Shown: in pieces, positions 20,616-60,220 of the stretch
Layout: each line of letters starts with the position of its first letter
Numbering within the stretch: the stretch's first letter is position 1
Assembly (NCBI GenBank): GCA_963807605.1
Contig: CAWECG010000001.1
Coordinates: forward strand, 320,001-384,000
DNA from: Candidatus Bathyarchaeota archaeon
Lineage (GTDB): Archaea; Thermoproteota; Bathyarchaeia; 40CM-2-53-6; RBG-13-38-9
DNA length: 64,000 nt
Direction of reading: 5' to 3'
Position numbers and translations under genes: made by a program
The notes under the pieces: generated by a model
Seen by the model: only the letters and a program-made list of their open reading frames with translations
Told to the model about the DNA's origin: nothing
Database searches by the model: none

Positions 20616-20616
20616 G

Positions 20617-31902: not shown

Positions 31903-32145
31903 TGTGTGCTCACCAAGGGACACCACCACACAGAAAAATGACGGTTCAAATTCGCCTGCTCGCACCAATGAAAACACATACAAGTGCTGAAACGAGAGTT
32001 CAATTTCCAGAGCTCGCACCAGTAGTACCACACACAAAGAAATTGTTAGAACGACGGTTCAAATTCAGGCGCTCGCACCATTGATGCCACACACACCACA
32101 TTTTTCGACCGAACGACGACGGCTCAAGTTCACTCGTCTACACCA
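31903..32145 (+). repeat. Tandem array of four tRNA-3'-end-like 27-bp repeats preceded by a core site
   Basis: Units at 31941, 31995, 32054, 32119: GGTTCAAAT-N12-ACCA, period 54-65 bp. Confidence 0.8.
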
Positions 32146-32201
32146 AAAATAAGACCGCAAGTCTCTTATTCGGAGCTCTCAACTTCATGACCGGTTGATC
32201 T

Positions 32202-32738
32202 GTGACCATGACCAATGTTCTAAATAATGTGGACCTTGACAAGATTGCGCAGACAGTTGCAGGCGGGAAGAAAGACAAAAGCACCCTTAGGAAGCCAGTA
32301 AAACTGCAAGGTGAATGGAACCTAGATCCCGCTAAAGGCTACCAGTTCAAAACCGAGCTGTCATACGAGAAGGGCAAACAGGTTATTGAGATAGATTCTC
32401 CTTCGTTTATGGGAGGATCTGGGAACAGACTCGGTCCAATGGCGTATTGCGTAGCAGGCGAAACGTCGTGTTTCATTGCCACGTTCGCAAGCGTTGCAGC
32501 AGAACAAGGCATTAAACTGACCAAACTGGCAGTCGATGCTCAATGCAGCATCAATTGGGCAAAATCATTCGATGTAGCAGATGAACCAATCAATGAGGGT
32601 ATTAGCTTTCAGATCGACGCGCAGAGTGATAATGCAGACAAAGAGCGACTTCAAGAGATAGTGAAGATGACAATGGAGCGATGTCCAGCAATGTACAGCA
32701 TGACCCATGTGATCAAGGTTGATGCCCGAATCAAGTGA
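32202..32738 (+). CDS. OsmC family protein
   Basis: DSPSFMGG..GP..YC...SC and terminal RCP. Confidence 0.85.
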   Translation: MTMTNVLNNVDLDKIAQTVAGGKKDKSTLRKPVKLQGEWNLDPAKGYQFKTELSYEKGKQVIEIDSPSFMGGSGNRLGPMAYCVAGETSCFIATFASVAAEQGIKLTKLAVDAQCSINWAKSFDVADEPINEGISFQIDAQSDNADKERLQEIVKMTMERCPAMYSMTHVIKVDARIK

Positions 32739-32841
32739 ATGATGTCGTTACTCTGCCACAGATCCCTCCTCTCGTCTTCAGTTTTTTTGGTTCTGTTATT
32801 CCCCACGCGGGTCGAGTGGTGCGCGCACTCACGAAACTATG

Positions 32842-32931
32842 CGGTTCAAGTTGGGTGGGCCGCACCGTTGAGAACACACACAAAATTGTAACCCAGCAGT
32901 TCAAATCCGGATGCTCTCACCAAGATGGCAC
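32842..32931 (+). repeat. Two further tandem tRNA-3'-like units
   Basis: CGGTTCAAGT-tgggtgggccgc-ACCG; AGTTCAAAT-ccggatgctctc-ACCAAGATGGCAC. Confidence 0.7.
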
Positions 32932-33125
32932 TGTAAGCGAAACGCACGGCTTCGGATGTCTTGCGTCCGAACATCACGTTAAGTTTTGAAAGGCCGAAGA
33001 AAAAGGAATCATTCTTGTCGATCAGGGTAAGATCGAGGCGGTCGGGGAGCGCCCCCGACAAGATCGAGCTCACTTCCAATCCGCCGAAACCCGCACCCAG
33101 GACAACCACGCGGAGCCCATCATGA
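32932..33125 (-). pseudogene. N-terminal fragment of FAD-dependent oxidoreductase (sulfide:quinone reductase-like)
   Basis: VVVLGAGFGGL..LTLIDKND.F.FG.SKL; similarity stops at the repeat unit. Confidence 0.75.
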
Positions 33126-33760
33126 TTTATCTCCTTTTCAGGCAAGATTCTCTTAACCGTCAGGTAAGTCTGGGTTATGTTGCAAATAAGGGCTTCCAAT
33201 AGCGGTCGATGGCAGTCACATCCCGCTTAACGAATAGTTCTGTCACCGCCTTTAGTACCAGATCTCTGTTGTTCATTTGGATTTCCTCTAGTTCAACTAT
33301 TCGGCATGTTCCTGCTGGGTCTTACTTTGGCTTGTAGGCGGGTGTGAAGATGGCGTGGGTTGGGTAGATTTCTACTTGGGGGTCCCCTTGGATCCCGATC
33401 TGTTTCATGCCTGACATAAGTCTGGTCTTGACGAAGTCGTCGTCGCTCACCATCTATAGCACACACGCATCCGAATCTTCTATAGACGTGAAACCTGAAA
33501 ATATTTAGAACCAAAGTGGATAATGCTGAGACGCGCGCGCGATGCGAAGAGGGCCTGATACGACGTAAGTGGTGGGACAATGATGCAATATAACGCACGC
33601 TCATAGTCATATCCTAGGTTACGCTAAATTTCGACTAGCACGCGAGTGACAGGATAGACCTGAGAAAGCGGCTGAGGCTCCAGCGCTCACTAAATTTAAA
33701 TCCAGAATAGTTGTATTATAAACACCTGCAACTGTAAGCCGCCTTAGGGGGATCCACAAA

Positions 33761-34120
33761 ATGGATAAAACGAAGCACGAACCCACAGAGAAAAAGCAAC
33801 CAGAAGCTACGCGCTTGGTAATATTCTTGCCGGGAATAGAGAGATCGACTGAGAAAACACTTCGAGTCGCCGCTGTGACCGACGAGGGAAAGATCGATAC
33901 TACCAGAGATGACACCGTGGAACTCTCAATAAACAATGAGGGTCGCATGCGCTTCAAGGACTCATCAAAAAATACGCAACTCAAATTGATTAATGGAGAA
34001 GCAAATGCGACGGTTATATCAGATCAGTCACATGGAGTCTCAATCTTCAAAGCCAGGTGGATAGGTGGGAAGACACCCCTTCAGCCAATACAAGTAACTT
34101 CTATCTATGTTCCTGGATGA
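33761..34120 (+). CDS. Hypothetical protein (beta-rich)
   Basis: ORF bounded by GCGCGCGC sites. Confidence 0.5.
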   Translation: MDKTKHEPTEKKQPEATRLVIFLPGIERSTEKTLRVAAVTDEGKIDTTRDDTVELSINNEGRMRFKDSSKNTQLKLINGEANATVISDQSHGVSIFKARWIGGKTPLQPIQVTSIYVPG

Positions 34121-34662
34121 GTATGTTTTGCAGCGCGCGCTTTACGTAATTTCACATGATCTTACACAAAAAGACACAACTTTACACACATAACCCAAAG
34201 AATTTTTTTTGTATTCAAAATTGTGTGTTTTTATGCGTTTTCACATAAAACTTTCCTTACCAATACTGTGAAATTATGTGTCCAATGTTGTAAAGTTATG
34301 TGGTTTTGCGTATTGTATAGGTGCTGTCTTACTGTGCCATGGTCATTACCGTGGACAACATCGAGAAGACGCTATTAGTGCCATGACTCCCTGTACTGTG
34401 TGAGCGCGCGCGAAATATTTCCAATGTGTATAGAGACCCTAATGATCATGCTAGCTTATCCATAGAATGTGTGCCCTAATGGTTGCCATTCATCATTAGA
34501 AACTGATAGTTAGAGTGATTCACGCCTGAAGATCTGAGGCGAGCTTTAGCGAGCAATATTGTGTGTGCGCACCACTAGACACACCTTCCTTGCCCCAGAA
34601 ACTAATACCTGCCTTACGCTATGGCAACTGTTAGATATCCTTGAACCGCAGAACAGCAGTTT

Positions 34663-35859
34663 ATGAAAACTCGATTTAAAGCGGTTCTAATAATTCTCTT
34701 CATCGTCACAGTACTATCAGCTCCAGTTAAAGCCCAAAACGTAAACCCATTGACTCCGTACGACATACGGGCCGCGTATGATGTGAACCCATTACTTCAA
34801 TCCGGCTACACTGGAAAAGGAGTAACCGTCGCCATTGTTGGCGAGAACATTGATGCAACCTACTATTCAGATGTGAACACGTTCAGCAGCAAATACGGAT
34901 TGCCACCCGCCAACATAAAGGCGGTCCAACCATACGCAGGCACAGGAACCGGTAAGACAGATGAAATAGCAGCGGATACGGAGTTTGTTCACGCAATGGC
35001 TCCTGACGCGAAAATTCTGCTTGTCCTAACTGGATCACAAAGCACTCTTAGGGGATTCTCCTACGTTATAGATCATAATGCTGCTGACATAGCGACGATG
35101 AGTTTTTACTGGTATTACTGGGGTAGTGGCGCTAGGGACACGGTTCAATCCTACAATCACGAATATGCCAACTCGGTTCGCAAGAAGATTACACTGATCT
35201 CCGTATCTGGTGACTTTGGATCTAACAATACTGTTCCTTGGGATCCTTCAGGAACTTGGAAAGGCGACTTCTGGGCGTCGCACCTGCCTAACGCGTATCT
35301 GATGCCTCAGTATAGTCCGTACGTCACGATTGTTGGAGGCACTGCTCTAACCTCACAGTCCAGTAATTATTCAGAAGTGGGGTGGAGTCAAAGCGGTGGA
35401 GGCCCAAGCAATCTATTTGCTGAACCAAGCTGGCAGAAGGGTCCCGGAGTTCCGCAGAACCACAGGCGCAATATTCCAGACATAGCGCTTGACGCATCAT
35501 CTAATACTCCCTATGCGTTCGATTGGAATGCAGATCAAGAGACTGAGTTCTGTGGGACTAGTGCGGCTGCACCAATATTCGCAGGGATTATGGCAGATAT
35601 TGATCAGGCTGCTGGAGGGCGAGTGGGCTTCCTGAATCCGCTACTATACTCGATTGCTTCAACAGACCCATCTGTATACCGTGATGTTACTTCAGGGTGT
35701 AGCTTAGTACAGGTAGGGTCTACCAATCAGACTGGATACTGTGCCCAGCCTGGTTGGGATTTCGTCACTGGCTGGGGAAGTATTGACGCATCTAAACTTG
35801 CGAGGCACCTTGCTCCGCACGCCAATATCTCTTACTTCTTGTCCCCAGTTCTTATCTAA
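34663..35859 (+). CDS. S53 (sedolisin-like) peptidase, secreted, no prodomain
   Basis: E..D (DEIAAD), SGD.G, GTSAAAP, GWDFVTGWG. Confidence 0.88.
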   Translation: MKTRFKAVLIILFIVTVLSAPVKAQNVNPLTPYDIRAAYDVNPLLQSGYTGKGVTVAIVGENIDATYYSDVNTFSSKYGLPPANIKAVQPYAGTGTGKTDEIAADTEFVHAMAPDAKILLVLTGSQSTLRGFSYVIDHNAADIATMSFYWYYWGSGARDTVQSYNHEYANSVRKKITLISVSGDFGSNNTVPWDPSGTWKGDFWASHLPNAYLMPQYSPYVTIVGGTALTSQSSNYSEVGWSQSGGGPSNLFAEPSWQKGPGVPQNHRRNIPDIALDASSNTPYAFDWNADQETEFCGTSAAAPIFAGIMADIDQAAGGRVGFLNPLLYSIASTDPSVYRDVTSGCSLVQVGSTNQTGYCAQPGWDFVTGWGSIDASKLARHLAPHANISYFLSPVLI

Positions 35860-36177
35860 CCACTTACTAAACGGCGCATAGAGTTGCGATTCCTCCTCCA
35901 CAATTCCAAGATCCTTAGCTAGATATTCTTGCGGCGCAGTTGATGCTTGTTTTAGCCATATGCTTCCGCCACGGCCGCGTCCGGTCTCAATTAGATTCGC
36001 CTGTTGTAGTTCGTTTACAACTTCCCAGTAAACTTCTTCAGGCCACTTCTCGTTCATGTCTTCAAGGAGGTCACGCAAATGAATGTTCCCGATGTGACCA
36101 ATCGGCGCAACTTTCCTTAGAAGCTGAAGTAGTACCTCCCCATTCCTAGAGAGTTTCCGCTCTGGCTCCGCTGCCAA
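35830..36177 (-). pseudogene. Winged-helix/restriction-related protein N-terminal fragment
   Basis: GRGRGGSIWL, EESQLYAPF; reading frame then runs antisense into the peptidase gene. Confidence 0.45.
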
Positions 36178-36337
36178 GATGAGTCACCACGCGGTAATAC
36201 AATGCCCCATTTCTTAGGCTTTGCCCCACCGGACTAAAATGGAACTTGCCATGAAATTGAGCATACTCAATTCCACCCGGGAATTCACGGGAGCTCATAG
36301 AAAGTAGATCTCAAATGTCACCTTGGCACATTAGCTG

Positions 36338-37348
36338 TTGGAGGCAGCTAGGATGAGTGTTGGACTAGTTCTGGAGAAATGCATACAAGTGTTCGGATCG
36401 GATGCCTTTGTGGAACATGAGAAGATATTCAGTGAACACCTCGCATATGCGCTTTGGTCTGCTTATCACCAAGGATTGCCCGAACCCTCTCTAGTCCAAA
36501 CTGTTGAGAGTGTAGTTAACCACCTCAACAACCTGACCATTACAAACATCAATCCTCATTTTGAGATATCGACAAAATCAATCTTCATTCATGGAAATAG
36601 GTCTCAGGTGAAATTTGACTACTGCGGAGAGACAATTCAAAGAGAGTTAGGGGATTTGATATTCATTGTGTCGATAATACTTGGTCACCAAAAATTCTTT
36701 GAAAAATTCACTATTAATCAATTCAAAAAAGATAACTCTAGATCAAAAGATATCTCATGGGATATTCGTAACAAAGGTCAGCTTTATTTGCTGTCGAGAT
36801 TTCCTAGATTCTCAGGAGCCACGGGGTCCCTGATTCCCCCTAGGAGATACACACTACGTAATATCTCCGGTTGCCTAGGCTCCTATGGGCTACTTCGCAG
36901 GCCGGGCGACATGGTTTTCACTAGTGCCTCCAAGCTCGATTCGATTATCGGTCTTCGAAATATTGTGAGAATAGGTGAGTTTGGTGGCTTGATCAGTGAG
37001 ACTGAATACCCACCTTGGTACATGCCATATCCATACCCTCACATCTTTCCGAATTACCATTATGCAGCAGATGTCTTCGATTTCTCACATAAACACTTGA
37101 TAATGGGCATAGGGGAGCCAACATTCATGAGACTAGGCAATTACAATTCGCAAGCTAGACACTTCCTTCATGAACTATTATTGGCAACAATAAAGAAGAC
37201 GGCCATAGAGACCGACCTAACAAAAGAATACTTCGACTATGATTATGTGGACAGCAAGGGAGAATATGGTCCCAGAGACAATTCAGAATTTGAGCCCGAA
37301 GGGGGAGATATAGGAATCATTAGTACTCTAATCAAGCTTGGAGAATAG
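36338..37348 (+). CDS. Hypothetical protein, possible PD-(D/E)xK-like nuclease
   Basis: ELGDLIF...INQFKK pattern. Confidence 0.5.
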   Translation: MEAARMSVGLVLEKCIQVFGSDAFVEHEKIFSEHLAYALWSAYHQGLPEPSLVQTVESVVNHLNNLTITNINPHFEISTKSIFIHGNRSQVKFDYCGETIQRELGDLIFIVSIILGHQKFFEKFTINQFKKDNSRSKDISWDIRNKGQLYLLSRFPRFSGATGSLIPPRRYTLRNISGCLGSYGLLRRPGDMVFTSASKLDSIIGLRNIVRIGEFGGLISETEYPPWYMPYPYPHIFPNYHYAADVFDFSHKHLIMGIGEPTFMRLGNYNSQARHFLHELLLATIKKTAIETDLTKEYFDYDYVDSKGEYGPRDNSEFEPEGGDIGIISTLIKLGE

Positions 37349-37514
37349 ATCGGACACATTTGGTTCGATCAGAGCATGAATGATTACCACTAAACATGCC
37401 AGAGTTACGCATACCGAAGAGCTCTAGCAAACGTGTTTAATGAGTAGAAACAGTTTGGAGAATATTTTCGCTCCGTGATAGACAGAGCAATTCTATTATC
37501 TTCCCCTTTAAACA

Positions 37515-37920
37515 GGTCATGTTTTGTATGCTATAGTTTGTTTCCTTTGCGCGATTTGCAGCTGGTTTTGTATTAGTTTTGTTTGTCTTTCTTGGGGGCA
37601 TGTCTTTACTACTGTTTATATTCCGTACAGGATTTTCTACTGGTTTTGTTTTCTTATTGATTGTAATGTTTAGGTAAGCTTGCTAGTGTGTTTTGTATTG
37701 TAGGTTTTCTGTTTGCTGTATATGGGGGTTGGTTATGCTATACCTTGTTTCTTCTTCCTGTGAGCTAGGGTAAACTAAAAACCCTGTAAACTATACATAA
37801 CATAAACCATAGAAACCATAACCCACTAACCTTCCACCTGCCGCAAACTGGCCAAACTGTTGCAGATATGCTCTGGCGGCATAGGGAGCACACTATTATG
37901 GTGGTGCTAACCGGCTAAGG
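37515..37920 (+). repeat. Non-coding skewed element copy A (homologous to 51380-51810)
   Basis: T/G-rich then A/C-rich; shared AAACYATACATAACATAAACCAYAGAAACCA block; ends in a degenerate core site. Confidence 0.75.
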
Positions 37921-37922
37921 TT

Positions 37923-38348: not shown

Positions 38349-38352
38349 TCCT

Positions 38353-38451
38353 GCGTGCGTAGCGAGCAGTTATCATTGGTGGTGGTGGGTGGTGTGTCCC
38401 TTGGTGAGAGCATCCGAAATTGAACCGTTAGGCTCTACTTTTAGCGCGCGC
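38353..38451 (-). repeat. Composite site: GCGTGCGTAGCGAGC + (GGT)n + tRNA-like core + GCGCGCGC
   Basis: Closely matches 51732-51806. Confidence 0.8.
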
Positions 38452-39470: not shown

Positions 39471-39520
39471 ACCCAGTAACCGGATGAAATAAACGCTAAC
39501 CCCTCATCTCTCTCGCGCGC

Positions 39521-40646
39521 GAGCTTCTTGCAATATTATATTTTCTGTGTTAATTTTGTGAACTGGATTGGTGACCGCATTTTATCGATGTGTCCGTGCT
39601 TGATCGCGGATAAGGCAGTTGCCAGTAGAGCCAGCAGACAGAGAAGTACATGTGATATGACGTTTCTTAGGCCGCGTGTTCGAAGCTGAGACAATCCGAA
39701 GTGTGTCTTGAGTCTTGAGAATGTTCTCTCCACTGAGGATCGACGTTTATACAGTTGTTTCAGACGGGCAGGTCCGTGTGAGCGGAACTTCCGGTCGATT
39801 CGTAGAACCTGTTTGCCCTTCATCTGGTTTCTAGGGTAAGGTATGATTGGTTCTATGCCCATAGATCTTGCCTTGTCTCTGAAAGCTTCGCTGGAGTATT
39901 GTGAGTCTGCAGTCATGCTCTTCCACCTATGTTTCTTCTTCAATGCTTTATGGAGGAGGTGGGGTGCAACTTTTTTCTCATTTACATTTGCAGGTTCTAT
40001 GGTGACTGCCCGCGGCATCTCGCTGATGGTGTCTACAGCAAGGTGTATGCCGTAGCCTAAGATCACGTTTCTACCTTGTTTTCGTAATCTGGCTTCAGAA
40101 TCGGATAATCCACACTGGGTATTGTGAGGATCTCTTCGACTGTAAGCTTTGATGAATGTGACGTCTAACGCTAGGATTTCAGAGTCCAGAATGTCCATGT
40201 GGTCAAGCTGTTTGATCAGACGGTTCATGAGGCGGTGAAATCCTTGAGGGCCTATTCTACGTCGAAACCTCAGAAGTATTGATGGGTGATATGGATTCTC
40301 TGATTCCTTGATGTCGCAGAGTTTGCAGAGTTCACCGTCGCTCCATAGAAGTCGGTATAGTTCCTCGTAGCTTTCTATGTGTCTTAGCCGTTTGACAAGC
40401 TCTGCTTTGAACATTCCAAGTAAATTTCTATGGGGTCTGCCGACGCTGCTTCTTCTTCCATAGCTTCTTTCTAAGACTTGTTCTACAAACGTTAAATCCA
40501 AAGCCTGAAACAGATCATACAGAGCCTTACACTCGCTCACTTCTTTTTCACCAGAAACGGCATGAGTGGGTGTAAAGCTCATCGATCTTATGATCAAAAA
40601 CACGTATACATCTTCATGTTAAGCCCAAGAATATTGCAAGAGGCTA
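39521..40646 (-). mobile_element. IS copy 2 (1126 bp), GCGCGC target duplication
   Basis: Same TIRs; GCGCGC at 39515 and 40647; transposase 39536..40603. Confidence 0.92.
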
Positions 40647-40688
40647 GCGCGCGATTACAGATATTTCATTGTGAAAATTGAATCCGCG

Positions 40689-42831: not shown

Positions 42832-42931
42832 ATCAGCCAGAGATAAAGCACGCTGGCTTTAGCACCTCACCTTAGATTGCACAAGCAGAGAATCGAGTAC
42901 AATTCCAGGTGCTCTCACCAGTCAGAGCCAC

Positions 42932-43231
42932 AATGCCAAGTCTCCGCTGAACCTCTTCACTCTGCACACCCTCAGACCGTGCAAACCTGACAGCCTCACC
43001 CAAAGCACTCGTAATAGTGGAAAGATGATTCTTAGTACAGGGAATACAAGCCACATCCTTCAAGGTTGGGTAGGGATTCTTAACTACTGACACAGGCGCA
43101 ACCACCACTTTGGTATCTGTATACTCACTACGTATCTGTGAAAGCCGTTTTTCAAGCTCTTTTGAAGCAGACTCCAGCTGTCTCTCTAAAGACTCGGACA
43201 TTACGCCTTCACACAGTACCAAGGGTGCCAT
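42932..43231 (-). pseudogene. Hypothetical protein with CxxC, apparently truncated at a tRNA-like site (42895-42931)
   Basis: ACIPCTKNHL; last residues are encoded by the site. Confidence 0.45.
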
Positions 43232-43747: not shown

Positions 43748-44392
43748 TTACTTGTCATAGACCGTGGGATCGGTAACATCTGCATCTTTGAAAGCCTTCT
43801 TGCGGTTCACGCATGATTCGCACATTCCACAGTGATTATTCTTGTTCAGATAGCAGCTCCATGTTAACTCGTAGGGGATGCCGAGTTTCATTCCCAGCTT
43901 GATTATTTGGAATTTCTTCATTTCGTGGAGGGGCGCGTCGATGACTATCTGGGTTTCTGTGCCTTTTCTCGCTGCTGTCTGAAAAGCCTGATAGAATTCC
44001 TCTCTGCAGTCTGGATAATAGGGGGCATCGGATGCTTGTGCTCCGTACAGGATCCTGCTGGCGCCTATTGAAATCGCATAGGCGACAGCTATCGATAGAA
44101 ATATTGCATTTCTGAATGGCACTATGACGACTGGCTTGAATATTGAAGGCATCGGAATTCGATCGTCCATAAGGGCTGTTGCTTCGCCGAAAACGTCTTT
44201 GAGGGAGGCGAGATCGATTATCTTCTGATTAATGCCTAATTTGTCAGCGATCATTTTTGCATGAAGGGTCTCTTTGGATGCGATTTGGCCATAGTTGAAT
44301 GTTATCGAATATACTTCATCCCCTTGTGATTTGGCTTGGTAGGCAACGGTTGCGCTGTCGGGTCCGCCGGAGAGAATAACTACGGTCTTCAT
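43748..44392 (-). CDS. queC: 7-cyano-7-deazaguanine synthase
   Basis: LSGGPDS, VPFRN, YPDC, WSCY...CGMCESC. Confidence 0.95.
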   Translation of the reverse strand: MKTVVILSGGPDSATVAYQAKSQGDEVYSITFNYGQIASKETLHAKMIADKLGINQKIIDLASLKDVFGEATALMDDRIPMPSIFKPVVIVPFRNAIFLSIAVAYAISIGASRILYGAQASDAPYYPDCREEFYQAFQTAARKGTETQIVIDAPLHEMKKFQIIKLGMKLGIPYELTWSCYLNKNNHCGMCESCVNRKKAFKDADVTDPTVYDK

Positions 44393-44396
44393 GGTA

Positions 44397-44897
44397 TCAT
44401 TCTTTCCTTAACGAATTCGGTATTCTGAGTCGTAGGAGGGTTCTGTAGACGAGGTATCCCAGGCCCGTTGTAGCTATTGTCAAACCAACAAAGACATAGA
44501 CGAAGGTGATGAGGTAGGGAAGGTGGAAGACAAGACTCAACAAGAATGCCACCCAGACCGAAACAAGCGTACTGTAGACCTGCAATCCAAGAAGAACACT
44601 CACATGCTTCAACCTGTACACTGCAAGAAGACCAAGTAGCGAAGGCAACACGCTCAACAGATCGATAGGTCCGAGAGGACTGGTCAGGTTGCCAATAAAA
44701 ACTCCAAGCGTCAGTCCGTAAACCGCAGGCAATCCGAACAGAGGAACCATTCCAATCAAAGCATTCGCTATACGAATCTGGATTTGTTGAAAACTTAATG
44801 GAGCAAAAACATTTACCAAAGTAACATAAAGTGCACAACAAACAACAACGAGTGCAATATCAAGAGTTCTGATCTTATCCAAACTGTTTCCTCCCAA
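44397..44897 (-). CDS. queT: QueT family transporter
   Basis: ALYV..APLSFQQIQIRIANAL..GVFIGNL.SPLGPID. Confidence 0.88.
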   Translation of the reverse strand: MGGNSLDKIRTLDIALVVVCCALYVTLVNVFAPLSFQQIQIRIANALIGMVPLFGLPAVYGLTLGVFIGNLTSPLGPIDLLSVLPSLLGLLAVYRLKHVSVLLGLQVYSTLVSVWVAFLLSLVFHLPYLITFVYVFVGLTIATTGLGYLVYRTLLRLRIPNSLRKE

Positions 44898-44945
44898 CCG
44901 GGGTTTCTAAAGCGGAACGGAGGGAGGCCTCCACCCGCTCTCCAC
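44898..44945 (-). promoter_or_regulatory. Candidate structured 5' leader of queT-queC
   Basis: Minus strand GAGCGG-GT-GGAGG-cctc-CCTCC-GTT-CCGCTT nested stem just before the start codon. Confidence 0.4.
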
Positions 44946-45193
44946 TCATTTAGGGACGACGAATGCTAATAAGACCTTGGAGGCTGCTTTGACCAAGTGC
45001 GCGCACCGTGATACTAGAGGTAAGTAGAAGCGCGCGCTTACGTATGACATTTTTCAAATCTATTGCAACCTAGAACGTATGTTGTTTGCTTCCGTTCTAT
45101 GATTCATCAGGGTGAAGCGAACTCGGCGCTACACTCCGCGGGGAATCTATATTTGGAAGTAGGACTAGGGCTACCGTAGTTCAACTCGGGCTT

Positions 45194-45548
45194 CTAGTCC
45201 TGTTTACTTCCGCATTTTCTGCAGAAATGTACGGTTACAGGTATGCGGGCTCCGCAGTTTAGACAGAATTTGGTTTCTTCCGCCGTAGTAACTGGTGCGG
45301 GAGACGGCCCACTCGCTTGTCCTTCTGCTGCTGTTCCACCTTTTCTCTTACCTTTCCTGCGTCGAACAAAAAAGACGACTCCAATAATTATGATTAGTCC
45401 AATAATCACGATAAAAGAGAATGCGGTTACTGAAAGACCCAATATGCTCATTGATGTCGATGCAGCCGTAGTCGTTATAGTCTCGTTCGAGGATTCTGAG
45501 GTTGTGATTTGTGAGGTTGTGGTTTGCGGGTTTGTTGGAACAGTTTGA
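45194..45548 (-). pseudogene. C-terminal fragment: Ser/Thr linker, TM helix, double zinc ribbon; begins at GCGCGC 45549
   Basis: FCLNCG..FCRKCG; frame open with no start codon up to the junction. Confidence 0.6.
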
Positions 45549-45754
45549 GCGCGCCCGGGCGTTACAAGGTTGCGAATAATTTACCGGACAACATTAGACT
45601 TAGGCACCTCAGGGTCACACTAGCCACTCAATAAAGTGAAGGCTCCAGAACAACGGATACAAAGCAAAATATGAGTTCTCCTAAACATATGTGATCAATC
45701 AAGGAGCTCCAGTGGTGGTCCGAACCGATGGAGTAAAGAAGAGATTATGTCAGC

Positions 45755-46621
45755 ATGAAACATGTGGTTAAATTCCAAGTCTTAACTGAAAGGCAGGAGT
45801 CGAGATTGCGTCAAACCTTAGGTATAACTCGTTTCGACACTACTGTTTCACTTAGACCCCCGCTTAAATGGGCTGGTGGTAAGAGATGGCTTGTTCCTCA
45901 CCTCAGGCCAATTTGGGAACCTCATAGAAATCGTCGGCTCGTTGAACCTCTGTGCGGCGGGCTTGCTGTTACCTTGGGCTTGATGCCTACTAGCGCTCTT
46001 CTTAATGACATCAACAATCACGCCATAAACTTCTTTCAAAGGCTCAAGAAGGGACTTGTGATAACCGTTCCCATGGAGAATAATCAAAAACTCTACTATC
46101 AGCATCGAAAACGATTTAATGAGCTTATCAAGACTGGCAGAGCTAACAGTCAAGAATCTGCCGAGTTATTTTATTATCTTAATAGAACTTGTTACAATGG
46201 ACTATGTCGTTTCAACCGGTCTGGAGAATTTAACGTACCTTTTGGACGGTACAAGAAAATCAATTACGTACGCGATTTCACCCCCTATAAACAAGTTTTC
46301 AAGGAATGGCTGTTCACAACAGGAGATTTCGAGGATGTCTCTTTAGATCCGAATGATTTTGTGTACGCAGACCCACCTTACGATGTGGAATTCACCCAAT
46401 ACTCCAAAGAAGGATTCTCATGGGAGGACCAAGTGCGTCTGGCTAAGTGGCTCACAAAACATTCTGGCCCAGTTGTACTTTCCAATCAAGCCACTCAGAG
46501 GATATGTGGACTGTATGGTGAGTTGGGGTACAGCTTGCGTTTCTTGAACGCGCCTCGAATGATTAGTTGTAAGGGAGATAGAACTCCCGCTAGGGAAGTC
46601 TTGGCTCTGAGAGGTATTTGA
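45755..46621 (+). CDS. Dam/D12-class N6-adenine DNA methyltransferase
   Basis: Same motifs; roughly 80% identical to 41995..42831. Confidence 0.92.
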   Translation: MKHVVKFQVLTERQESRLRQTLGITRFDTTVSLRPPLKWAGGKRWLVPHLRPIWEPHRNRRLVEPLCGGLAVTLGLMPTSALLNDINNHAINFFQRLKKGLVITVPMENNQKLYYQHRKRFNELIKTGRANSQESAELFYYLNRTCYNGLCRFNRSGEFNVPFGRYKKINYVRDFTPYKQVFKEWLFTTGDFEDVSLDPNDFVYADPPYDVEFTQYSKEGFSWEDQVRLAKWLTKHSGPVVLSNQATQRICGLYGELGYSLRFLNAPRMISCKGDRTPAREVLALRGI

Positions 46622-46794
46622 AATATGTCTCCTCGTGACCCAGGGACTGAGAGTGTGTTAGAAAAAAGATGCTTTCAGGTGAAGGCCCCTAGAGTCATAA
46701 GTTGCGTGGGTACTGGATGTGGCATGATTTCGGAGTTTGTTATTGGTAACTATTTGACACCAAAAGCCAAGCACAATCCATTGGTTGACATTGG

Positions 46795-48081
46795 TTGATG
46801 AAGATGCCTCGAAAGGTCGAGAAGTGGGCAGACATAGTCCGACAGCTTGGGCTAGACATATCAAAACCAGTCAATCCCGTGACTGCGAAACAAATCAAGG
46901 AAATCACTCACGAAGAACCTAGGCTCATGGCTAAGATGGATACTATAGAAAGCCTTCCATCGATTTTCAGAGAGAATGGGCTTTTCTTACTACCCGCAAG
47001 CAGAACCGAGTATTTAATTGTGAAAGGCAAAGGCTACCACAAGTTAGAAGATTTGCCCACCAATGTCTTGGTACATGAGACTCGTTATCTCTTTCCGTCA
47101 TCTGCATTAGGTGTTCAAAGCGAGGGAATTTACCTTGATTATGCGTACTCTTCTGGGTTGATAGGAAAGATCAGCGGTGGCGGCAACCTGATACTCGCGT
47201 TCCGCGGGAGAAGAACGACTCCAAGATTCAGTTTCAATGTAAGCGAACAGGTCATTAGGGTCGATGGGGCGCAAATCGAGGTAGATGGCGCATATGAGAG
47301 TTCTGAAGAAGTTGTGCTGGTGGAATCCAAACTCGGTATCCCCAGCTCGTTCAATATCCGACAGCTTTACTATCCCTACAGGACGTTTAACGATAGAAAA
47401 CATCCAAGGAACTTTTTCTTCTGTTTCGAGCAGATCCGAAATGAGTACTTGTTTTGGGAGTATGATTTTAGACCACATACGAGTTTCGAGTCTATCGAAC
47501 TTTTGCGCGCGTTAAGATGTCAAGTGAAAGTAACAAATCCCGTTACTGCGGATGATTACAGGGATGTAATGCCTGCCAGAAAAATCATCCCGCCTCAGGC
47601 CGACTCCGTCGATAAGATAATTGAGCTTCCATTCAGAATTTCCGAAGGATACGACACATCTGAGAAGATGACAAGAGCCTTTGGATTTGTTCAACGACAG
47701 AGTTCGTATTACCGACAAGCCGCTGAATTGTTGGGACTGGTGGAGTCAAAAGATGACAGGTACGCGCTCACTGACTCGGGAGAGCGCTATATCAAGTTGC
47801 TGCCAGAAGAAAGGAACAACTACATCTGCCGCCTGCTACTCAAGTTTCCCATTATGAATGATATATTCCTCCAATTATCTATCAAACGGGGCAGCCATGT
47901 CACCAAGCAGAAAATTATAGAGATCATTAGGGAACGTTCACAGTTGACGGGCACGACCCTCACAAGACGTGCCCAGACGATTATCTCGTGGTTTAAGTGG
48001 ATAAGAAACAATTTAGGAATCGTTGAAGTCGACAGAAAAGGCAATGTTTGGATCTCGAAGCAATTACCACAGTCTCAATGA
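46795..48081 (+). CDS. Probable type II restriction endonuclease partner of the methylase
   Basis: EPRLMAKMD, QIEVDGAYE...VESK, FNIRQLYYPYR, C-terminal winged helix (RQSSYYRQAA). Confidence 0.75.
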   Translation: MMKMPRKVEKWADIVRQLGLDISKPVNPVTAKQIKEITHEEPRLMAKMDTIESLPSIFRENGLFLLPASRTEYLIVKGKGYHKLEDLPTNVLVHETRYLFPSSALGVQSEGIYLDYAYSSGLIGKISGGGNLILAFRGRRTTPRFSFNVSEQVIRVDGAQIEVDGAYESSEEVVLVESKLGIPSSFNIRQLYYPYRTFNDRKHPRNFFFCFEQIRNEYLFWEYDFRPHTSFESIELLRALRCQVKVTNPVTADDYRDVMPARKIIPPQADSVDKIIELPFRISEGYDTSEKMTRAFGFVQRQSSYYRQAAELLGLVESKDDRYALTDSGERYIKLLPEERNNYICRLLLKFPIMNDIFLQLSIKRGSHVTKQKIIEIIRERSQLTGTTLTRRAQTIISWFKWIRNNLGIVEVDRKGNVWISKQLPQSQ

Positions 48082-48290
48082 AATAACGCCCTTATGGTAT
48101 AGGAAGTCTCAGACTCGGGCAGTCCATCGTGTCAGCTCTGAGGAAGTGGTTGAATGAAATCCCTCCACATCGCATTCGCGGTCTCTAGCGGCTGTATGTG
48201 CTCACCATGTATCGCACACATAATAGATATGGCTCGCTGTCACTCATCTCACCCGAAATGATCCATTAGAAACCTACTTGGGGTCGCGGT

Positions 48291-48821: not shown

Positions 48822-48893
48822 GTTCTTAAGATCACTCTCTATTACATGGGTTTCCTCGTCGCTCACCAGCTATGGCTCACATCAACTAGCGAA

Positions 48894-50093: not shown

Positions 50094-50227
50094 AGACCTT
50101 CCCGCGAGGCGCCACCTTTCTCATCTAACAACCGTGTCTCATTCATTTTGTGGTGGAGGTGCTCACCAAGGGACACATAGCGAAGAACCTAAGGGAATCC
50201 GGCAATGCCGTCATAACATCCAGCCTA

Positions 50228-51379: not shown

Positions 51380-51872
51380 CCATATTTTGTATGTTGCAGT
51401 TTATTGTTTGTTACTTTCTATGCTGCTTACTGCCAGTTTTGTATTAGTTTTAATTGTTTTTTAGGTCAAGTTATGTCTTTCTTTATGTCTTTGTTTGTTT
51501 TGTTCTAAGTTGGTTTGTATTGTTTAGGTTCAAGTTTCCCAGCATGTTTGGTATTGTGGATTTTCCGGTTTTTCCATGTGTTGATTTAGGTTTGAAATAA
51601 GGCATTGTCTATTCCTGTATTGTATGGTAAACCAAAAACCCCGCAAACCATACATAACATAAACCACAGAAACCAGGAACCGGTAAACTTCCAACTATCA
51701 CTGCTATACCATGCTGCTGCTGGTATGTTCTGCGAGCGTAGCGAGCAGTTATTTTGGTGGTGGTGGTGGTGTGTCCCTTGGTGAGAGCATCGTGATTTGA
51801 ACCGTTAGAGCAGACTATTTTTTTGTGTGTGTGTGCCATAGCTGGTGAGCACCACCACCACCACCACCACCA
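51380..51872 (+). repeat. Non-coding skewed element copy B plus composite sites, (GGT)5 and (CAC)7 tracts
   Basis: Homology to 37515-37920 and 38353-38429. Confidence 0.8.
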
Positions 51873-53034: not shown

Positions 53035-53117
53035 GCGAGCGTAGCGAGCCATTAGATTATGTTGTGTGTGTGTGTGTGTGTGTGTGTGTGCTCACCAAGG
53101 GACACGATGCGCGCGCG
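53035..53117 (+). repeat. Composite site: GCGAGCGTAGCGAGC + (TG)14 + GTGTGCTCACCAAGGGACAC + GCGCGCGCG
   Basis: Direct reading. Confidence 0.85.
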
Positions 53118-53732: not shown

Positions 53733-53936
53733 CTATAGCGAGGGCGTGTGCGCGTGTCTTTCTGAATGCAATTGTCCACCCGTTGCCCAATTGCTCTTTG
53801 GCGCCTCATAAATGACGATCTCGACTGCTTCCTTGGGAACCCCTAAATCTTCAAAAACTTTAGTTATCCCTTCGACTGTTTTCTTCTTGTTCTCAGGGCG
53901 AATGCCCTCCCAAACAGAAACTTGAACTATTGGCAT
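53733..53936 (-). CDS. 4-oxalocrotonate tautomerase family
   Basis: N-terminal Pro, NWATGG; GGTGA RBS. Confidence 0.9.
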   Translation of the reverse strand: MPIVQVSVWEGIRPENKKKTVEGITKVFEDLGVPKEAVEIVIYEAPKSNWATGGQLHSERHAHTPSL

Positions 53937-54108
53937 TTCATTTTCACCTAAAATAACACTTTGCTATTTGGCCTAATCAATATGTTCCCTCAATAAAGCG
54001 CACGCGTAGACGGAGAGATCATCATGCACAAACTAGACAAGACCACAGCGAGCGCTCAACAAATATAAGTATGCGAAGTAAAAGCTGTAAAAATAGAAGG
54101 CTGATAGA

Positions 54109-55083: not shown

Positions 55084-55228
55084 TTGGACCAACGTGAGGA
55101 TTCGAACAGCGCGCGCTAGCCGTATTGGGCGCTGACGCCCGCGGGACAGAAGGAGTAGGCGTTCACCCTATGAAGAATATTCTTCTGAACCCTGACAGCG
55201 CGCGCTCACCCATTTTTATTCTCTATCT

Positions 55229-55879
55229 TTAAGGCCCACCTGTGAAATATGCCATGACAGTGTGATCATAGTTCATCACGATTGTAACCGAGGCAGAGGG
55301 GGCGTAATTAACACCGTCAATAGTCCAGTAGCTTAAGGCATAGCCGTTATTGGGGTAGGCGGTTACCGTCACAACTGATCCAGCAGAATACGAGTAAGTC
55401 CCAATTGATGGAGAGGTAACACCCTGTCCGCTAGTGTATATCGTAAGCTGAGCCGTTACCATTAAGCCGTTGTTATAGAGGTTCCAATTGTAAGGGTGAT
55501 GAGTAACGCGCGTGCGCGCTAAACTGGGGGTAGCCCCGCCAATTGTTGCTTGGGCCTGCGTCGGAGTCGTTATCACGTTCCAAGACTTGGTCCCGCTCAA
55601 AGACTTGGTTCCGCTCCAATGTGTGGGTGCGGAGAAGTTTCCATGCGTGGGATAGGTCGTGTTAAGGATTCTACCCTCGTTTGGTTTCGTTTTATCTGGC
55701 GCTGCATTTACTGTCGCTACAAGTGTGGCGCTCGTCGCTAGCGCCGAACCTATAACTACTACGATCATCACTGCTACCGTAAGTGGGGCGATCTTAATTT
55801 TTGCTCTCATTTTTCCCACCATACTGTAATAATAATGGATATCTAGGTATGTGGGTTGTGGAACTTTGTGAGTGAACAA
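55229..55879 (-). CDS. Secreted protein with InlB B-repeat-like C-terminal domain, possibly chimeric at 55507-55519
   Basis: Signal-like segment; GSVVTVTAYPNNGY..SYWTIDG. Confidence 0.55.
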   Translation of the reverse strand: MFTHKVPQPTYLDIHYYYSMVGKMRAKIKIAPLTVAVMIVVVIGSALATSATLVATVNAAPDKTKPNEGRILNTTYPTHGNFSAPTHWSGTKSLSGTKSWNVITTPTQAQATIGGATPSLARTRVTHHPYNWNLYNNGLMVTAQLTIYTSGQGVTSPSIGTYSYSAGSVVTVTAYPNNGYALSYWTIDGVNYAPSASVTIVMNYDHTVMAYFTGGP

Positions 55880-55980
55880 TGTTAACTTACTAGTTATGTA
55901 AGAGTGCGCGCGTCCACAAAGAACCGGCGTCTCCTAGACTTCTTATGGGTCTTTCCGGTATCCTTTCGATCTTCTTGATT

Positions 55981-56036
55981 GTGTGTGCCTTAGCTGGTGA
56001 GCACACACACTAAAACGACTGGCTCGCTACACTCGC
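55981..56036 (-). repeat. Composite site (GCGAGTGTAGCGAGC...GTGTGCTCACCAGCTAAGGCACAC)
   Basis: Direct reading. Confidence 0.8.
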
Positions 56037-56090
56037 CGTCGATACTCAGACAAAGAACAGACTCTGAAGTTTTTCTAATAAGCCCCAAGC

Positions 56091-57545
56091 TTATCCAGTT
56101 TGTTTTGTGCCACATTGACTGCAGAATTCAGAGCCAGGAGATAATTCGGCTCCACACTTGACGCAGGAAGTGGGAACTTCTACAAACTGCTGACTTAGCG
56201 TCGCTTGTTTGGGTCTATGCGTGATTCTTGATTCTCGTCTCCGAAGGAAAACCAAAACGACAACAGCAGCTACAACTACTCCCACGATTCCATAAATGTA
56301 TAAGTTGTCAATCACGAACCCCCCAATCGCTACGGCAGGAACATCCTCTCCGTTAGCGATTGCTTCTTGTGACAGTTTGATGTACCTGTCCGCGTAAGGG
56401 CTGCCAGGATACAGTGTCTGGACCTCTTGAAATTGCTGGATCGCTAGTGAGTAGTGCTGATTCCAGTAGTAATTGAGCCCCTGCGCCCAGTAAGTATCTA
56501 TTGGTCCTCTGGTATTCTGCACGTTTACCTGGCTCATGAAGATTTTTGCAACATTTATTGGTATTAAAAAGTTCACGTTGCTCAGTTCGCCCCCTCCCAC
56601 AGGGTTTCCCGTTCCAAGGGTAGCTATTCCGATAACGTTTCCTTGAGCGTCGATTACCGGTCCGCCGCTGTTCCCATGATGGATTGATGCGTCAGTCTGA
56701 ATGAAGGTGATTTGGCCCTGACTCGTCTGGGCTGGCTTCAATGCGCTGACGGTTCCCTGAGTTATCGTCGGTTCAAGGCTCTCCAGCGAATTTCCTGAAG
56801 ATTGGGCTTGAGACACTATGCCGGGGTATCCGATGACCACTAATGGTTCTCCAACTTGGACTGTTTCCGAGTCTCCGAGACGTATAGTCGGCAAGCTGTA
56901 ATCTACATTTACCTTGATAATGGCTACATCCATCGCACCGACTTGGCCGTTGGTTACTACATTCGCGATAGCTGCATTAGCTACGATCTTTGTAATGGGC
57001 CCGTTGGATTGGGAAAGCGGGAACACGACAGCGTCGAGCACCTGCTCGTTGGTGAATTTCCCATTTGTAAGAAAGTACTGTTCAAAGGCTGCTTCAATGT
57101 TGTTGTACTGGTCTTGAGTAATCTGCCCGTTCGTCACAAGAGACTGGTAATTCTGGGCACATTGTTGGGCGAGAGAACTTATGTACTCTGCCTGGCTTTC
57201 TTGGGAGGTTGCAACATGGGCGTTTGTTACTATGTAACCGTCTGGCGTGACTATGAAGCCTGACCCCCAGGCCCCCCGTTTGAGACTGGGAGGTTAAATA
57301 CTTCAGCTGGTGAATATGGTTTCACAACATAATTACCCTGGCTGTCCGTACTGAGGGCGGTGTCATATTTGGGACCTGTGAAGTTGGCTGTATACTGATT
57401 GTAGATTAGGACCACAGCCGGTTCGTTCAGATTGGCAATCATCTCCGTGGTCGTAGGCTCGGAGCGGTTTTGGGCAGAGACTTGCCCGACCGCTGAGAAA
57501 TACGTGAGCGTTAAACCCAGCAGTACTATTAATGCAACTTTCAGT
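56091..57545 (-). pseudogene. Trypsin-like (HtrA-type) membrane serine protease, frameshifted in G6/G5 tracts near 57270
   Basis: GSGFIV..TNAHV, DVAIIK, GNSGGP, TM and zinc ribbon; split into ORFs 57251..57442 and 56091..57137. Confidence 0.8.
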
Positions 57546-57870
57546 CTTAGCGTATCGAGACGATCCTTTGAAGATTTAGTTTGATATTTGTACTTAACCT
57601 TCCCATGAAATTAGTATTATGTTTTATCCCCAACATCTTTCAGTATGTTTAGGTCTTTGAAGTATACGTCAGCTGGGTAGAGATAACCTACCCCTTGGCG
57701 TGGTCGCTGGTAGTTCCAGTAGTTCACGAACTGTTGATGGGTCGGATACATCCAGGCTTCGTATTGGTAGGCTTTGGAAGGCTTCTATCTTTCCTATGGT
57801 TGATGGCGCGCGCGTAAAGACTATAATACGCGTCAAGGGCGAATCACAGCCACAAGGAAGTAAAAGCAAG

Positions 57871-58712
57871 ATGAACTGGAAAATCCATGTCTTGTATTTA
57901 GGAGAGCTAACCACTCCTAAAGGGCTTTTCACACCAGGCCTCGACGCGAACCTACTTCTTAAAGTGCCATACCTTGGATATCTACTAGTTTCCGGGTCGA
58001 GAAAGAATTCCTTGTGGACACCGGTATCAACTCGCGTTTCGTCATCGAAAAAGCATGGGCCGGAGCTCCTGCAAAAGGGGGAGAGAAATTTCTCCTCGAT
58101 GCATTGGAGAAAAATGTTGCCCGCACTGAAGAGATCGAGGCAGTAATCTACACTCATCTACACAACGATCATGCGGGGAACTGCCATCTCTTCCCTATGG
58201 CCCGACATGTTTTTCATTACGACGAATGGGGTGAATTAGTAGACCCACTTCCCTCGATGCGGATCCGAAAACTCTTCGACCCCGACGTCATTCCTGTTCT
58301 TCAAAAATCTCGCTGCCTCAAAATAACTGATGACGGCGAGTTTACAGAAGGTATTCGACTTTACCACACCCCCGGTCACACCATCGGGGGACTGACCGTA
58401 GCAGTGGATACTTCCAATGGGACATACATCATCCCCGGAGATATCGTGAATATCTATCAGAATCTCTTCCCCAAAATGTCGTGGATGTTAGATCTTCAAG
58501 CAAAACGCATCAAGACAACACCCGCTCCAGAACCTTACGGCCCATTAGGCGTCCCCTCTGGGCTTGTGTACGATCACTATGCATGGTATCGGAGTATCTG
58601 GAAAATCCGCGGTATGCTCAAAAGCCCAAAGCACCTGTTGCCCTGCCACGAACCCGCAATATCAGGCAAAACCTTCCCAGGCGATTCAATAGACCTCGAG
58701 ATTCCTGAATGA
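57871..58712 (+). pseudogene. MBL-fold N-acyl homoserine lactonase family, 1-bp frameshift near 58010
   Basis: MNWKIHVL..PYLGYLL / VDTG..THLHNDHAGN..TPGHT..PGD. Confidence 0.8.
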
Positions 58713-58957
58713 GAGAAAACATAGGGAGCGCTGAATTAATCATCAACACGATCAGTTTCAAGATTCCATATCGTTTGAAGCCTGAAGATCTATGGTGCAT
58801 TTGAATTAGCTTCTGCGTGAGAGCAGCGCGCGCTACGCTAAGAAATAGTGGAATCAGTCCCTTGGTGGGCACACACCAACTAATCCAATCTGTCGCTAGT
58901 GCTTATTACGCGCACAAGTTTGTTCTCACCGACATGGCAGCAAAGACACGAATACTC

Positions 58958-59773
58958 TCATAGGCCATCAGAACGCCCACCGTTTAATGGGATTACTGAG
59001 CCATTCATGTATGATGATTCTTCGCTGCATAAGAATAATATGACATTGGCAACATCTTTCGGCTTACCAATTCCTAGTGGGATGCGTGATTCATAGTACT
59101 TCATCCATTTTCCATCATCTTTGAGGCGCAAATCATCATTCATAGGGGTATCAATTATAGTAGGCATCACCACATGTGTTTTTACGTTGTATTGAATCAG
59201 TTCTTTCGCAGCGGTCTTAGCCATTCCTATAACTCCTGCTTTTGATGCGCTGTATGCAATTTGACCTATATTTCCCTCGGCAGCTGTACTGCTAATACAG
59301 ATAATGCGTTTGTCAGGAAATGTTCGCGGAGGCGGAACTGGTTTTCCACTAGCCTTTGAGGTTTTTATCTGAGCGTCAGGCTCCTTGATCCACTTCTTCA
59401 CACACGTTTGCATGAACAAGAAGAGACCTTTAAGATTTGTATCGACCACATCACCAAAAGTCTCTTCCGAAATCTTGGCAATCATACCATCCTTCCTGAT
59501 GCCAGCACAGGCGACAAGATAATCAAGGTCACCAAACCTATCAAATACCTTATCCACACAAGCTTCAACATCGTCTTTTTTCCTTACGTCACCAGTAAAT
59601 GCGATGCATTCGCTGCAGTGTTTTTTTATTTCTCTGCGGGCTGATTCAACAGTTTCACCATTTACATCAAATATGGCAACTTTCGCTCCTCTCATCGCAA
59701 ACTGGATAGCTGTCTCTTTTCCTATGCCGCTGGCCCCACCTGTGATTAGAACAACTTTATTCTCAAAGCCCAT
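58958..59773 (-). CDS. SDR family oxidoreductase (FabG-like)
   Basis: TGGASGIG, YSASK. Confidence 0.9.
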   Translation of the reverse strand: MGFENKVVLITGGASGIGKETAIQFAMRGAKVAIFDVNGETVESARREIKKHCSECIAFTGDVRKKDDVEACVDKVFDRFGDLDYLVACAGIRKDGMIAKISEETFGDVVDTNLKGLFLFMQTCVKKWIKEPDAQIKTSKASGKPVPPPRTFPDKRIICISSTAAEGNIGQIAYSASKAGVIGMAKTAAKELIQYNVKTHVVMPTIIDTPMNDDLRLKDDGKWMKYYESRIPLGIGKPKDVANVILFLCSEESSYMNGSVIPLNGGRSDGL

Positions 59774-60134
59774 TGGTTTGGCCTCCCGTCTTAATGCATC
59801 GATTGAAGTATGCTTATCCGTATTTATTATCACTCTTTCACTCGTCTCTCTCGTTTATGCTGGAAGGATGCTGTTCTTCAGTGTTTGTCCCATAGCTGGT
59901 GCGACTAGAAACTTTCAGGTAAATGTTTACGATTTCAAGAAGAAATACTATGGGAGAACTGCAAGGCCCTAGAAGTTAGTTTGACGAACTATCCCACTGT
60001 GTTATGAATCACCAGAAGCAAACCAAGGAATCGCACATCTAATCTCATAATGTAGAGAGGAGAGAGGGGTTTCAGGAGATTCTTCCCTGACATGCATGAG
60101 AGGGATACCTGAGCAGGATAGGGATAGGATATTC

Positions 60135-60220
60135 TGTGTGTGTGCCTTATCTGGTGAGAGCATCCGGATTTGAACCTTTAGAGCAGGTTAATTTTCTTGT
60201 GATGCTGGAAAATAGCGCGC
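60135..60220 (-). repeat. tRNA-like core site followed by GCGCGC
   Basis: Minus strand GGTTCAAAT-ccggatgctctc-ACCAGATAAGGCACAC. Confidence 0.8.

Follow-up and report, generated by a model that had tools for sequence, protein, structure and literature searches.

tRNA-3′-end-like sites bounding gene cassettes in a Bathyarchaeota genome: probable target sites, duplications and end tips of casposons

Casposons, understood as transposons that are integrated by a Cas1-type casposase, are thought to be ancestral to CRISPR adaptation, and the natural examples are few, large and low-copy. The casposase of Methanosarcina mazei produces 14-bp duplications, the first four bases of which (CGCA) equal the last four of tRNA-Leu; it requires about 30 bp upstream, and TATATCCC is the sequence of the casposon ends (PMC6977970). 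A single duplication is shared between tandem casposons, and solo ends as well as both orientations have been reported (PMC4779613). Engineered mini-casposons move in trans, with excision leaving one target copy, and an element of M. mazei Go1 was seen arriving at a new tRNA-Leu-like site together with a target copy of its own (PMC10359463). Here, we describe a family of repeated sites resembling tRNA 3′ ends at 31.9–60.2 kb of a 64,000-nucleotide stretch of Candidatus Bathyarchaeota archaeon (assembly GCA_963807605.1, contig CAWECG010000001.1, positions 320,001–384,000), which is referred to as the window.

These sites are probably casposon target sites, target-site duplications and end tips, including those of smaller relatives without Cas1. 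They obey one grammar, are spread through the genome and are anchored at tRNA genes in relatives; perfect duplications surround three casposase elements, and element ends abut different 14-mers. An earlier note on this DNA had proposed integration or recombination sites modelled on the tRNA 3′ end and bounding accessory-gene cassettes, which the analysis supports. Its description as a candidate new system is too strong, because a tRNA 3′-end target, a 14-bp duplication, tandem insertions, solo ends and both orientations are already published for family-2 casposons (PMC6977970, PMC4779613). The sites most likely extend known casposon behaviour as a variant of family-2 casposon biology, rather than forming a new integrase system. 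No paper on such arrays in Bathyarchaeia was found.

Site grammar and likeness to tRNA 3′ ends

The repeat family is genuine. The core GCTC[T/G]CACCA occurs eight times in the window versus 0.23 expected from shuffles, with none of 100 shuffles reaching eight. All 21 coordinates listed in the earlier note were read, revealing a clear signature in 16, ten on the plus strand (31909, 31961, 32015, 32074, 32916, 34568, 48201, 48862, 50162 and 53091) and six on the minus strand (38408, 51785, 51849, 56001, 58869 and 60158), and degenerate copies in five (32119, 32842, 37901, 42895 and 59881). One further good site, at 33446–33459, had been missed.

A site begins with an optional 18-nt leader, composed of a T-loop-like 9-mer, six variable bases and GCT. 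This is followed by a 14-mer opening CTCACCA, or CGCACCA in the tandem row at 31.9–32.1 kb, and ending mostly in either of two 7-mers, GCTAWGG or AGGGACA. Simple-repeat tips stand on one or both sides of the 14-mer, the left ones being (GT)n, (GTC)n or (GGT)n closing with G, and the right ones (CA)n, (CGA)n or (CCA)n opening with C. The two cores seen earlier are explained by this order, GCTCTCACCA being the leader GCT plus the 14-mer and GCTCACCA the final G of a tip plus the 14-mer. The arms are indeed mixed and matched among sites. With leader and 14-mer together termed a landing pad, the sites of the window read as follows:

31901–31922 (+), junction of a (GT)n tip with 14-mer 31909–31922 (AGGGACA class)
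31943–31974 (+), landing pad with leader 31943–31960 and 14-mer 31961–31974 (CGCA type), then a CA-rich tip
31997–32028 (+), landing pad with leader and 14-mer 32015–32028 (CGCA type), then a (CA)n tip
32056–32087 (+), landing pad with leader and 14-mer 32074–32087 (CGCA type), then a (CA)n tip
32121–32152 (+), degenerate landing pad, unit five of the tandem row
32843–32874 (+), degenerate landing pad with leader and 14-mer 32861–32874, then a (CA)n tip
32898–32929 (+), landing pad without tip, leader and 14-mer 32916–32929, adjoining the truncated flavoprotein-like open reading frame (ORF) 32846–33199 (−)
33436–33467 (+), junction absent from the earlier note: (GTC)n tip, 14-mer 33446–33459 and (CA)n tip opening element E1
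34560–34581 (+), junction of a (GT)n tip with 14-mer 34568–34581
37907–37920 (+), weak, degenerate 14-mer-like site
38370–38426 (−), landing pad with leader 38409–38426, 14-mer 38395–38408 and (CAC/CCA)n tip; the element body opens ATAACTGCTCGC
42896–42927 (+), degenerate leader with 14-mer 42914–42927, upstream of a D12 methyltransferase cassette
48194–48221 (+), junction of a GT-rich tip, 14-mer 48201–48214 and CA tip
48855–48875 (+), junction of a (GTC)-type tip with 14-mer 48862–48875
50150–50175 (+), junction of a (GTG)-type tip with 14-mer 50162–50175
51772–51870 (−), compound site: (GGT)n tip, 14-mer 51836–51849, (CA)n A-rich leader unit 51786–51835 and 14-mer 51772–51785
53060–53104 (+), junction of a (GT)n tip of about 30 nt with 14-mer 53091–53104, then a GCGCGCGCG run
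55988–56009 (−), junction of a (GT)n tip, 14-mer 55988–56001 and (CA)n tip
58856–58877 (−), junction of a (GT)n tip with variant 14-mer 58856–58869
59890–59903 (−), weak 14-mer-like site without clear tips
60145–60176 (−), landing pad with leader 60159–60176 and 14-mer 60145–60158, then a (CA)n tip

The placement of sites at gene boundaries was confirmed, every clear site falling between ORFs that have Pfam support. The claim that two genes are cut was upheld in part: ORF 32846–33199 (−), with a Rossmann N-terminus, loses its sense exactly at the 14-mer (its Pyr_redox_2 match being weak, E 0.03), whereas ORF 42872–43231 belongs to no family. The cassettes carry OsmC, a subtilase-like protein, two D12 methyltransferases, QueC/QueT and a DUF6997/DUF7226 protein, and further three nitroreductases, an amidohydrolase, a trypsin-like peptidase, a metallo-beta-lactamase-fold protein and a short-chain dehydrogenase. 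QueC, QueT, the second D12 adenine methyltransferase and a DUF6996/DUF6997/DUF7226 protein lie together at 43748–48081 and may be a DNA-modification or defence cassette group.

The distance of 12 nt from the T-loop-like box to ACCA was given correctly in the earlier note and is also that found in the host's real tRNA genes, whose CCA is encoded and whose acceptor stems are GC-rich. The exact T-loop 9-mer is present in four copies of the window, whereas the others deviate by one or two bases. The proposed tRNA mimicry holds for spacing and sequence boxes and is limited to these because the T-stem is not kept: across 72 aligned copies its five pairs are as frequent as chance would give, and covariation between columns is absent in every register, the mutual information stemming only from two alternative tails. 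Conservation of the leader boxes far exceeds that of the 6-nt spacer, and two highly conserved boxes with a free spacer fit a protein that recognises double-stranded DNA, not a folded mimic. ARAGORN and Rfam scans of the window revealed no tRNA and no other match.

These properties bear on whether the motif could be a free-standing small repeat, either a relative of transposable elements of the miniature inverted-repeat type (MITEs) or repetitive extragenic palindromes that a transposase of the DDE or Y1 type moves, or an RNA-processing element resembling a tRNA, in each case unrelated to Cas1 and simply abundant in accessory DNA. Box–spacer–box conservation would suit a protein- or RNA-binding site, the approximately 100 short copies form subfamilies and are often at contig ends of metagenome-assembled genomes (MAGs), the window holds a three-copy DDE insertion sequence (IS), and the genome four Y1 transposases. 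However, pairing and covariation are absent in any stem register, as is an Rfam or tRNA match, the ends of the IS (GCGCGCTAGCC...) bear no relation to the motif, no Y1 gene lies near a site, one loose case excepted, and the exact fit to the target geometry published for the casposase would have to be coincidental. Nor does the motif behave as the end of a MITE with its own duplications, a possibility raised in the earlier note, since the units have no inverted ends and the 14-mers beside a leader unit mostly differ. We consider such a repeat quite improbable. Leader units as mini-elements with duplications of their own were likewise rejected, the 14-mers on their two sides mostly differing.

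Casposase-bearing elements and their ends

The genome contains one intact Cas1 gene and five fragments. The intact gene (C3:803495–804700, 402 aa) matches the M. mazei casposase PDB 6OPM over residues 4–397 (E 6e-72) and sits in an 8,979-bp element (L014:935–9913), the inverted repeats of which consist only of 14-nt simple-repeat (CGA)n tips. Both flanks of the element carry a perfect 15-nt direct repeat that includes a rare 14-mer variant with the ending GCTAAAG, and a leader adjoins one of them; SIR2-like, ATPase and DUF5677 genes are the cargo.

Two further casposase units of Bathyarchaeia show the same arrangement. In a genome of another family (G038:C14; casposase 67% identical), a leader, 14-mer and (CA)n tip at 2640 and a (GT)n tip with the identical 14-mer at 12060 (14/14) enclose Cas1. 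In a third MAG (L031; casposase 80% identical), an identical rare 14-mer (14/14) bounds a 9-kb, tip-bounded unit with Cas1. Both units have (CA)n/(GT)n tips, each with its own rare 14-mer, and also inner junctions, which implies that composite units can be moved by their outermost tips. Perfect duplications of 14–15 bp were, in all, found around three casposase-bearing units, bearing out the mention of casposases as a possible class in the earlier note: casposase genes or fragments adjoin sites, and the intact ones have perfect 14-bp core duplications. For a further casposon (L030), the left end was not found within 10 kb.

The window itself contains one fragment:

20601–20892 (−), casposase (Cas1) fragment, residues 25–111 at 20617–20892, 90% identical to the intact C3 casposase (Pfam Cas_Cas1, E 1e-4) and ending in a leader-like piece at 20601–20616

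This fragment abuts the 3′ end of a gene for a 703-aa PQQ/beta-propeller protein (18504–20615, +) with eight 120-nt tandem repeats (18615–19754) and a simple-repeat tail.

The left end of E1 (33460 onward, after the 14-mer at 33446) recurs at C3:584973 behind a different 14-mer and beside a different neighbour, and the 14-mers before the ATAACTGCTCGC element family and before about 13 GGGGATATAG-type ends vary in the same way. The 14-mer therefore belongs to the target and not to the element. About 15 genome copies of a conserved end of at least 60 nt, opening GGGGATATAGATAACTGG, abut a 14-mer in either orientation (for example C1:397035, C3:51887, C3:586625 and C4:723060) and match the published end tip of the M. 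mazei casposon. Pairing of the GGGGATATAG-type long ends into complete elements yielded no partner, for which reason they look like solo ends.

In the earlier note, the sites had instead been read as an integron-like platform worked by a tyrosine recombinase, in which CTCACCA would be the crossover and the arms att-type hybrids exchanged by the integrase at 21196–22332 (−). That ORF is probably a divergent tyrosine recombinase (PHROG_1, E 2e-6; atlas 0.98), with no Pfam or PDB match. Archaeal tyrosine integrases target tRNA genes, the arms are mixed and matched as such exchange would have it, and identical rare 14-mers occur nearby in opposite orientation too. However, the seven variable bases of the 14-mer do not travel with the adjoining element, and the perfect 14-bp direct duplications at three casposase units are the mark of staggered-cut transposition. 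Linkage also speaks against the integrase as driver: some 9.6 kb separate it from the first site, and it and its three full-length paralogues all lie 9–27 kb from any site, like random positions, whereas three of the six Cas1 genes and fragments lie within 1 kb of a site versus 10% of random positions. Neither integron parts, such as an IntI-type recombinase beside attI, nor attC-like or other conserved hairpins were seen, and exchange by this recombinase is highly improbable. Its family comprises, besides the three full-length genome paralogues, fragments, one member standing beside a tRNA-Ala gene on C3 (~1,145.8 kb), and the ORF resembles an ordinary integrase of an integrated element.

If the sites are casposon targets, leader (18 nt) and 14-mer would copy the last ~32 bp of a tRNA gene, the natural target of family-2 casposases. 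The casposase would read this target as double-stranded DNA and cut it 14 bp apart, starting four bases before the discriminator end of the tRNA, and the inserted segment would then be flanked by two 14-mer copies. Simple-repeat tips would close the inserts, C(A/GA/CA)n at one end and its complement at the opposite end, a GGGGATATAG-type end as in M. mazei casposons taking their place in some. The approximately 100 pseudo-tRNA pads may have spread by repeated insertion beside the leader, by composite mobilisation through any two outward tips and by leader units carried in elements, and the same processes could have built the cassette island at 31.9–60.2 kb.

Spread in the genome, relatives and strains

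Fifty exact cores were counted in the genome, and an iterated nhmmer model gave 97 copies on four of the five contigs; a looser scan revealed 173 junctions with a leader or tip. The family is not special to this stretch, yet it is clumped, 22 copies falling in C1 350–450 kb, an interval of 3.8% of the genome. Sister genera within this taxonomic family (G001, G002, G003 and others) have the strict leader pattern too, the reversed control giving zero matches, and the units are often at contig ends in MAGs. Outside the family, the looser pattern found true tRNA 3′ ends only. Within it, genera g4 and g7 have multi-copy pseudo-leaders ending ...GCCCGCACCA or ...GCTCGCACCA, and G000–G003, G000 being the genome that contains the window, such leaders ending ...GCTCTCACCA.

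The window shows no synteny with G001, G002, G003 or G008, single cassettes alone being in common. A D12 methyltransferase cassette is common to the window and G001 (G001:C364, G001:C301), the homology ending exactly at the leader/14-mer border. At an orthologous locus in G000, G003 and G015, leader, 14-mer and tip are present and the cargo differs.

Real tRNA genes serve as anchors in G004, G010 and G007, with the pseudo-tRNA copies of the window having the same geometry. In G004:C68, an intron-bearing real tRNA gene ends in a 14-mer identical to the flank of the G038 casposon, and a (CA)n tip comes next. Behind a real tRNA in G010:C75 stand a pseudo-leader and a GGGGATATA-type end; in G000, the orthologue of that tRNA is unoccupied. 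The host tRNA ending GCTC[T/G]CACCA that the earlier note had suggested looking for was not among the detected tRNA genes, a set that is incomplete because the host tRNA genes are intron-rich; three real host tRNA genes end ...CCCCGCACCA and one ...GGCCGCACCA, all unoccupied. The tRNA genes found in G000 numbered nine without intron search, 31 with intron search and 22 by Rfam, an unusually intron-rich complement, and one 3′ half ending ...CCCCGCACCA is common to three tRNA loci.

Strain variation was followed in public runs, in which 5–7% of sampled words were present, as contigs of related soil strains, most of the stretch being uncovered. Soil-metagenome contigs from three runs of one study join 55107 to 60434, skipping 55108–60433 (5,326 bp), and AGCGCGCG stands at both breakpoints; beyond this joint, some motif-only loose ends were seen. 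The octamer GCGCGCGC is over-represented genome-wide, with 298 copies versus 6–35 for other 8-mers of the same composition, roughly 10–50x. At 30301–62675, some 27 runs of alternating GC, in typical form A-GCGCGCGC-T, occupy intergenic cassette borders (for example at 30301, 31051, 34133, 38444, 43678, 45030, 53109, 55109, 55198, 58826 and 60435). The 1.14-kb DDE IS, encoding a 355-aa DDE_Tnp_1 transposase, has its three copies at 23575–24715, 39515–40655 (−) and 61536–62676; its inverted ends open GCGCGC(T/G)AGC and may relate to the GC-run joints, and GCGCGCGC begins the ends of this IS.

Several observations weigh against casposon insertion as the origin of the sites. The element with the intact Cas1 lacks PolB among its ten ORFs of at least 90 aa, unlike canonical casposons, and this single intact casposase stands for about 170 junctions. 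Instead of ordinary inverted repeats, the tips are simple repeats, hypervariable even inside a single element family. Flanking 14-mers are often unequal: no tip-bounded segment of the window has identical ones, the best pair (56001/51849) agreeing at 13/14, and adjacent tip-facing pairs genome-wide agree at 13–14/14 in only 7 of 35 cases versus a background of 10.5%. A genome-wide excess of matching neighbours speaks for casposon insertion but is modest, same-orientation pairs at least 13/14 identical within 20 kb numbering 52 versus 35 ± 7 in permutations (5 of 500 reach 52), and opposite-orientation pairs show no excess. Leader units are often preceded by a tip and another 14-mer (15 forward and 10 reversed cases), which makes their history a nested and rearranged one. 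In the tandem row of 31.9–32.1 kb, the matching 14-mers further right that nested insertion predicts were not found. Breakpoints in the core, which the earlier note expected between strains, were not seen, as the sole well-supported deletion breaks at AGCGCGCG rather than in the tRNA-like core. Neither the soil contigs nor the C3 casposon locus in five relatives, where it was occupied or without a pad, gave an empty/filled allele pair with its break at a 14-mer. Finally, several shared cassettes are bounded by GCGCGCGC runs; breaks and cassette borders at GCGCGCGC or AGCGCGCG imply that a second process also shapes the island.

Some of these points would also suit a fossil field, in which casposons made the sites but the island has since become inert, homologous or GC-run-associated recombination alone reshuffling it and today's gain and loss of cassettes being unconnected to the tRNA-like sites. 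With five of six Cas1 copies being fragments, mismatched flanking 14-mers in the window, the strain-level deletion at AGCGCGCG and an over-abundant GCGCGCGC at cassette borders, this state of the island carries some weight. Against it, the perfect 14/14 duplications at three casposase units imply recent integration, one casposase is intact, and the leader boxes, kept far better than the 6-nt spacer, suggest ongoing selection for recognition. We regard it as unlikely.

With casposon insertion as the preferred reading, the single intact casposase on contig C3 may mobilise gene cassettes in trans, and the pad system may remain active. The non-matching flanks, although they count against casposon insertion, could arise from later recombination or from elements carrying a donor 14-mer; the M. 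mazei Go1 behaviour, an element bringing its own target copy, would give unequal flanks like those in the window (PMC10359463).

Comparison with known systems

The system resembles the family-2 casposons of M. mazei (MetMaz-C1, MetMaz1FA1A3-C2; PDB 6OPM) in a casposase that is homologous over its full length, in a 14-bp duplication opening C-G/T-C-A four bases before the discriminator end of the tRNA, in an upstream 20–30 bp (approximately) of the tRNA 3′ region that is conserved or needed, in some ends reading GGGGATATA, and in tandem insertions with one duplication in common, solo ends and both orientations (PMC6977970, PMC4779613). It differs in that the intact Bathyarchaeia element is without PolB and flanking 14-mers are often unequal. 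Instead of the 31–59-bp inverted repeats of M. mazei casposons, most ends here are hypervariable simple-repeat tips, and most inserts are cassettes of one to few genes without Cas1. Moreover, the M. mazei target comprises one tRNA-Leu and two intergenic sites, whereas here it is copied about 100 times as pseudo-tRNA ends. The engineered mini-casposons of M. mazei Go1 offer a parallel, with cargo flanked by ends and target copies only and the casposase supplied in trans; those are laboratory constructs, and natural Cas1-less cassettes would move here in a comparable way.

As in CRISPR leader–repeat–spacer arrays built by Cas1–Cas2, a leader-proximal repeat appears to be duplicated by a Cas1-family integrase and inserts stand between repeats. 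Unlike such arrays, the present ones have no Cas2 or effector genes beside them, a 14-bp repeat, gene-sized inserts with tips of their own and mixed orientation. With mobile integrons (IntI, attI, attC), they share single-gene accessory cassettes stacked at a recombination site; they differ in that linkage to IntI and attC hairpins are both missing, and in showing direct duplications where integrons have conservative site-specific exchange.

A bolder proposal is tentative and, in our view, somewhat doubtful. A PolB-less Bathyarchaeia casposase lineage may have turned one tRNA target into approximately 100 portable, self-propagating pads and mobilised single-gene cassettes in trans, giving leader-anchored 14-bp-repeat arrays with gene-sized inserts, a living intermediate between transposon, integron and CRISPR array. 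Its elements would carry a donor target copy, making integration partly like site-specific recombination.

If the pads hold rows of small cassettes, they would show a Cas1 integrase building repeat–insert arrays and acting in gene capture. The pads would also supply natural substrates, namely leader, 14-mer and minimal tips, for probing the requirements of casposases. For the annotation of Bathyarchaeia MAGs, the pads explain a main reason why contigs break and why accessory islands lack synteny.

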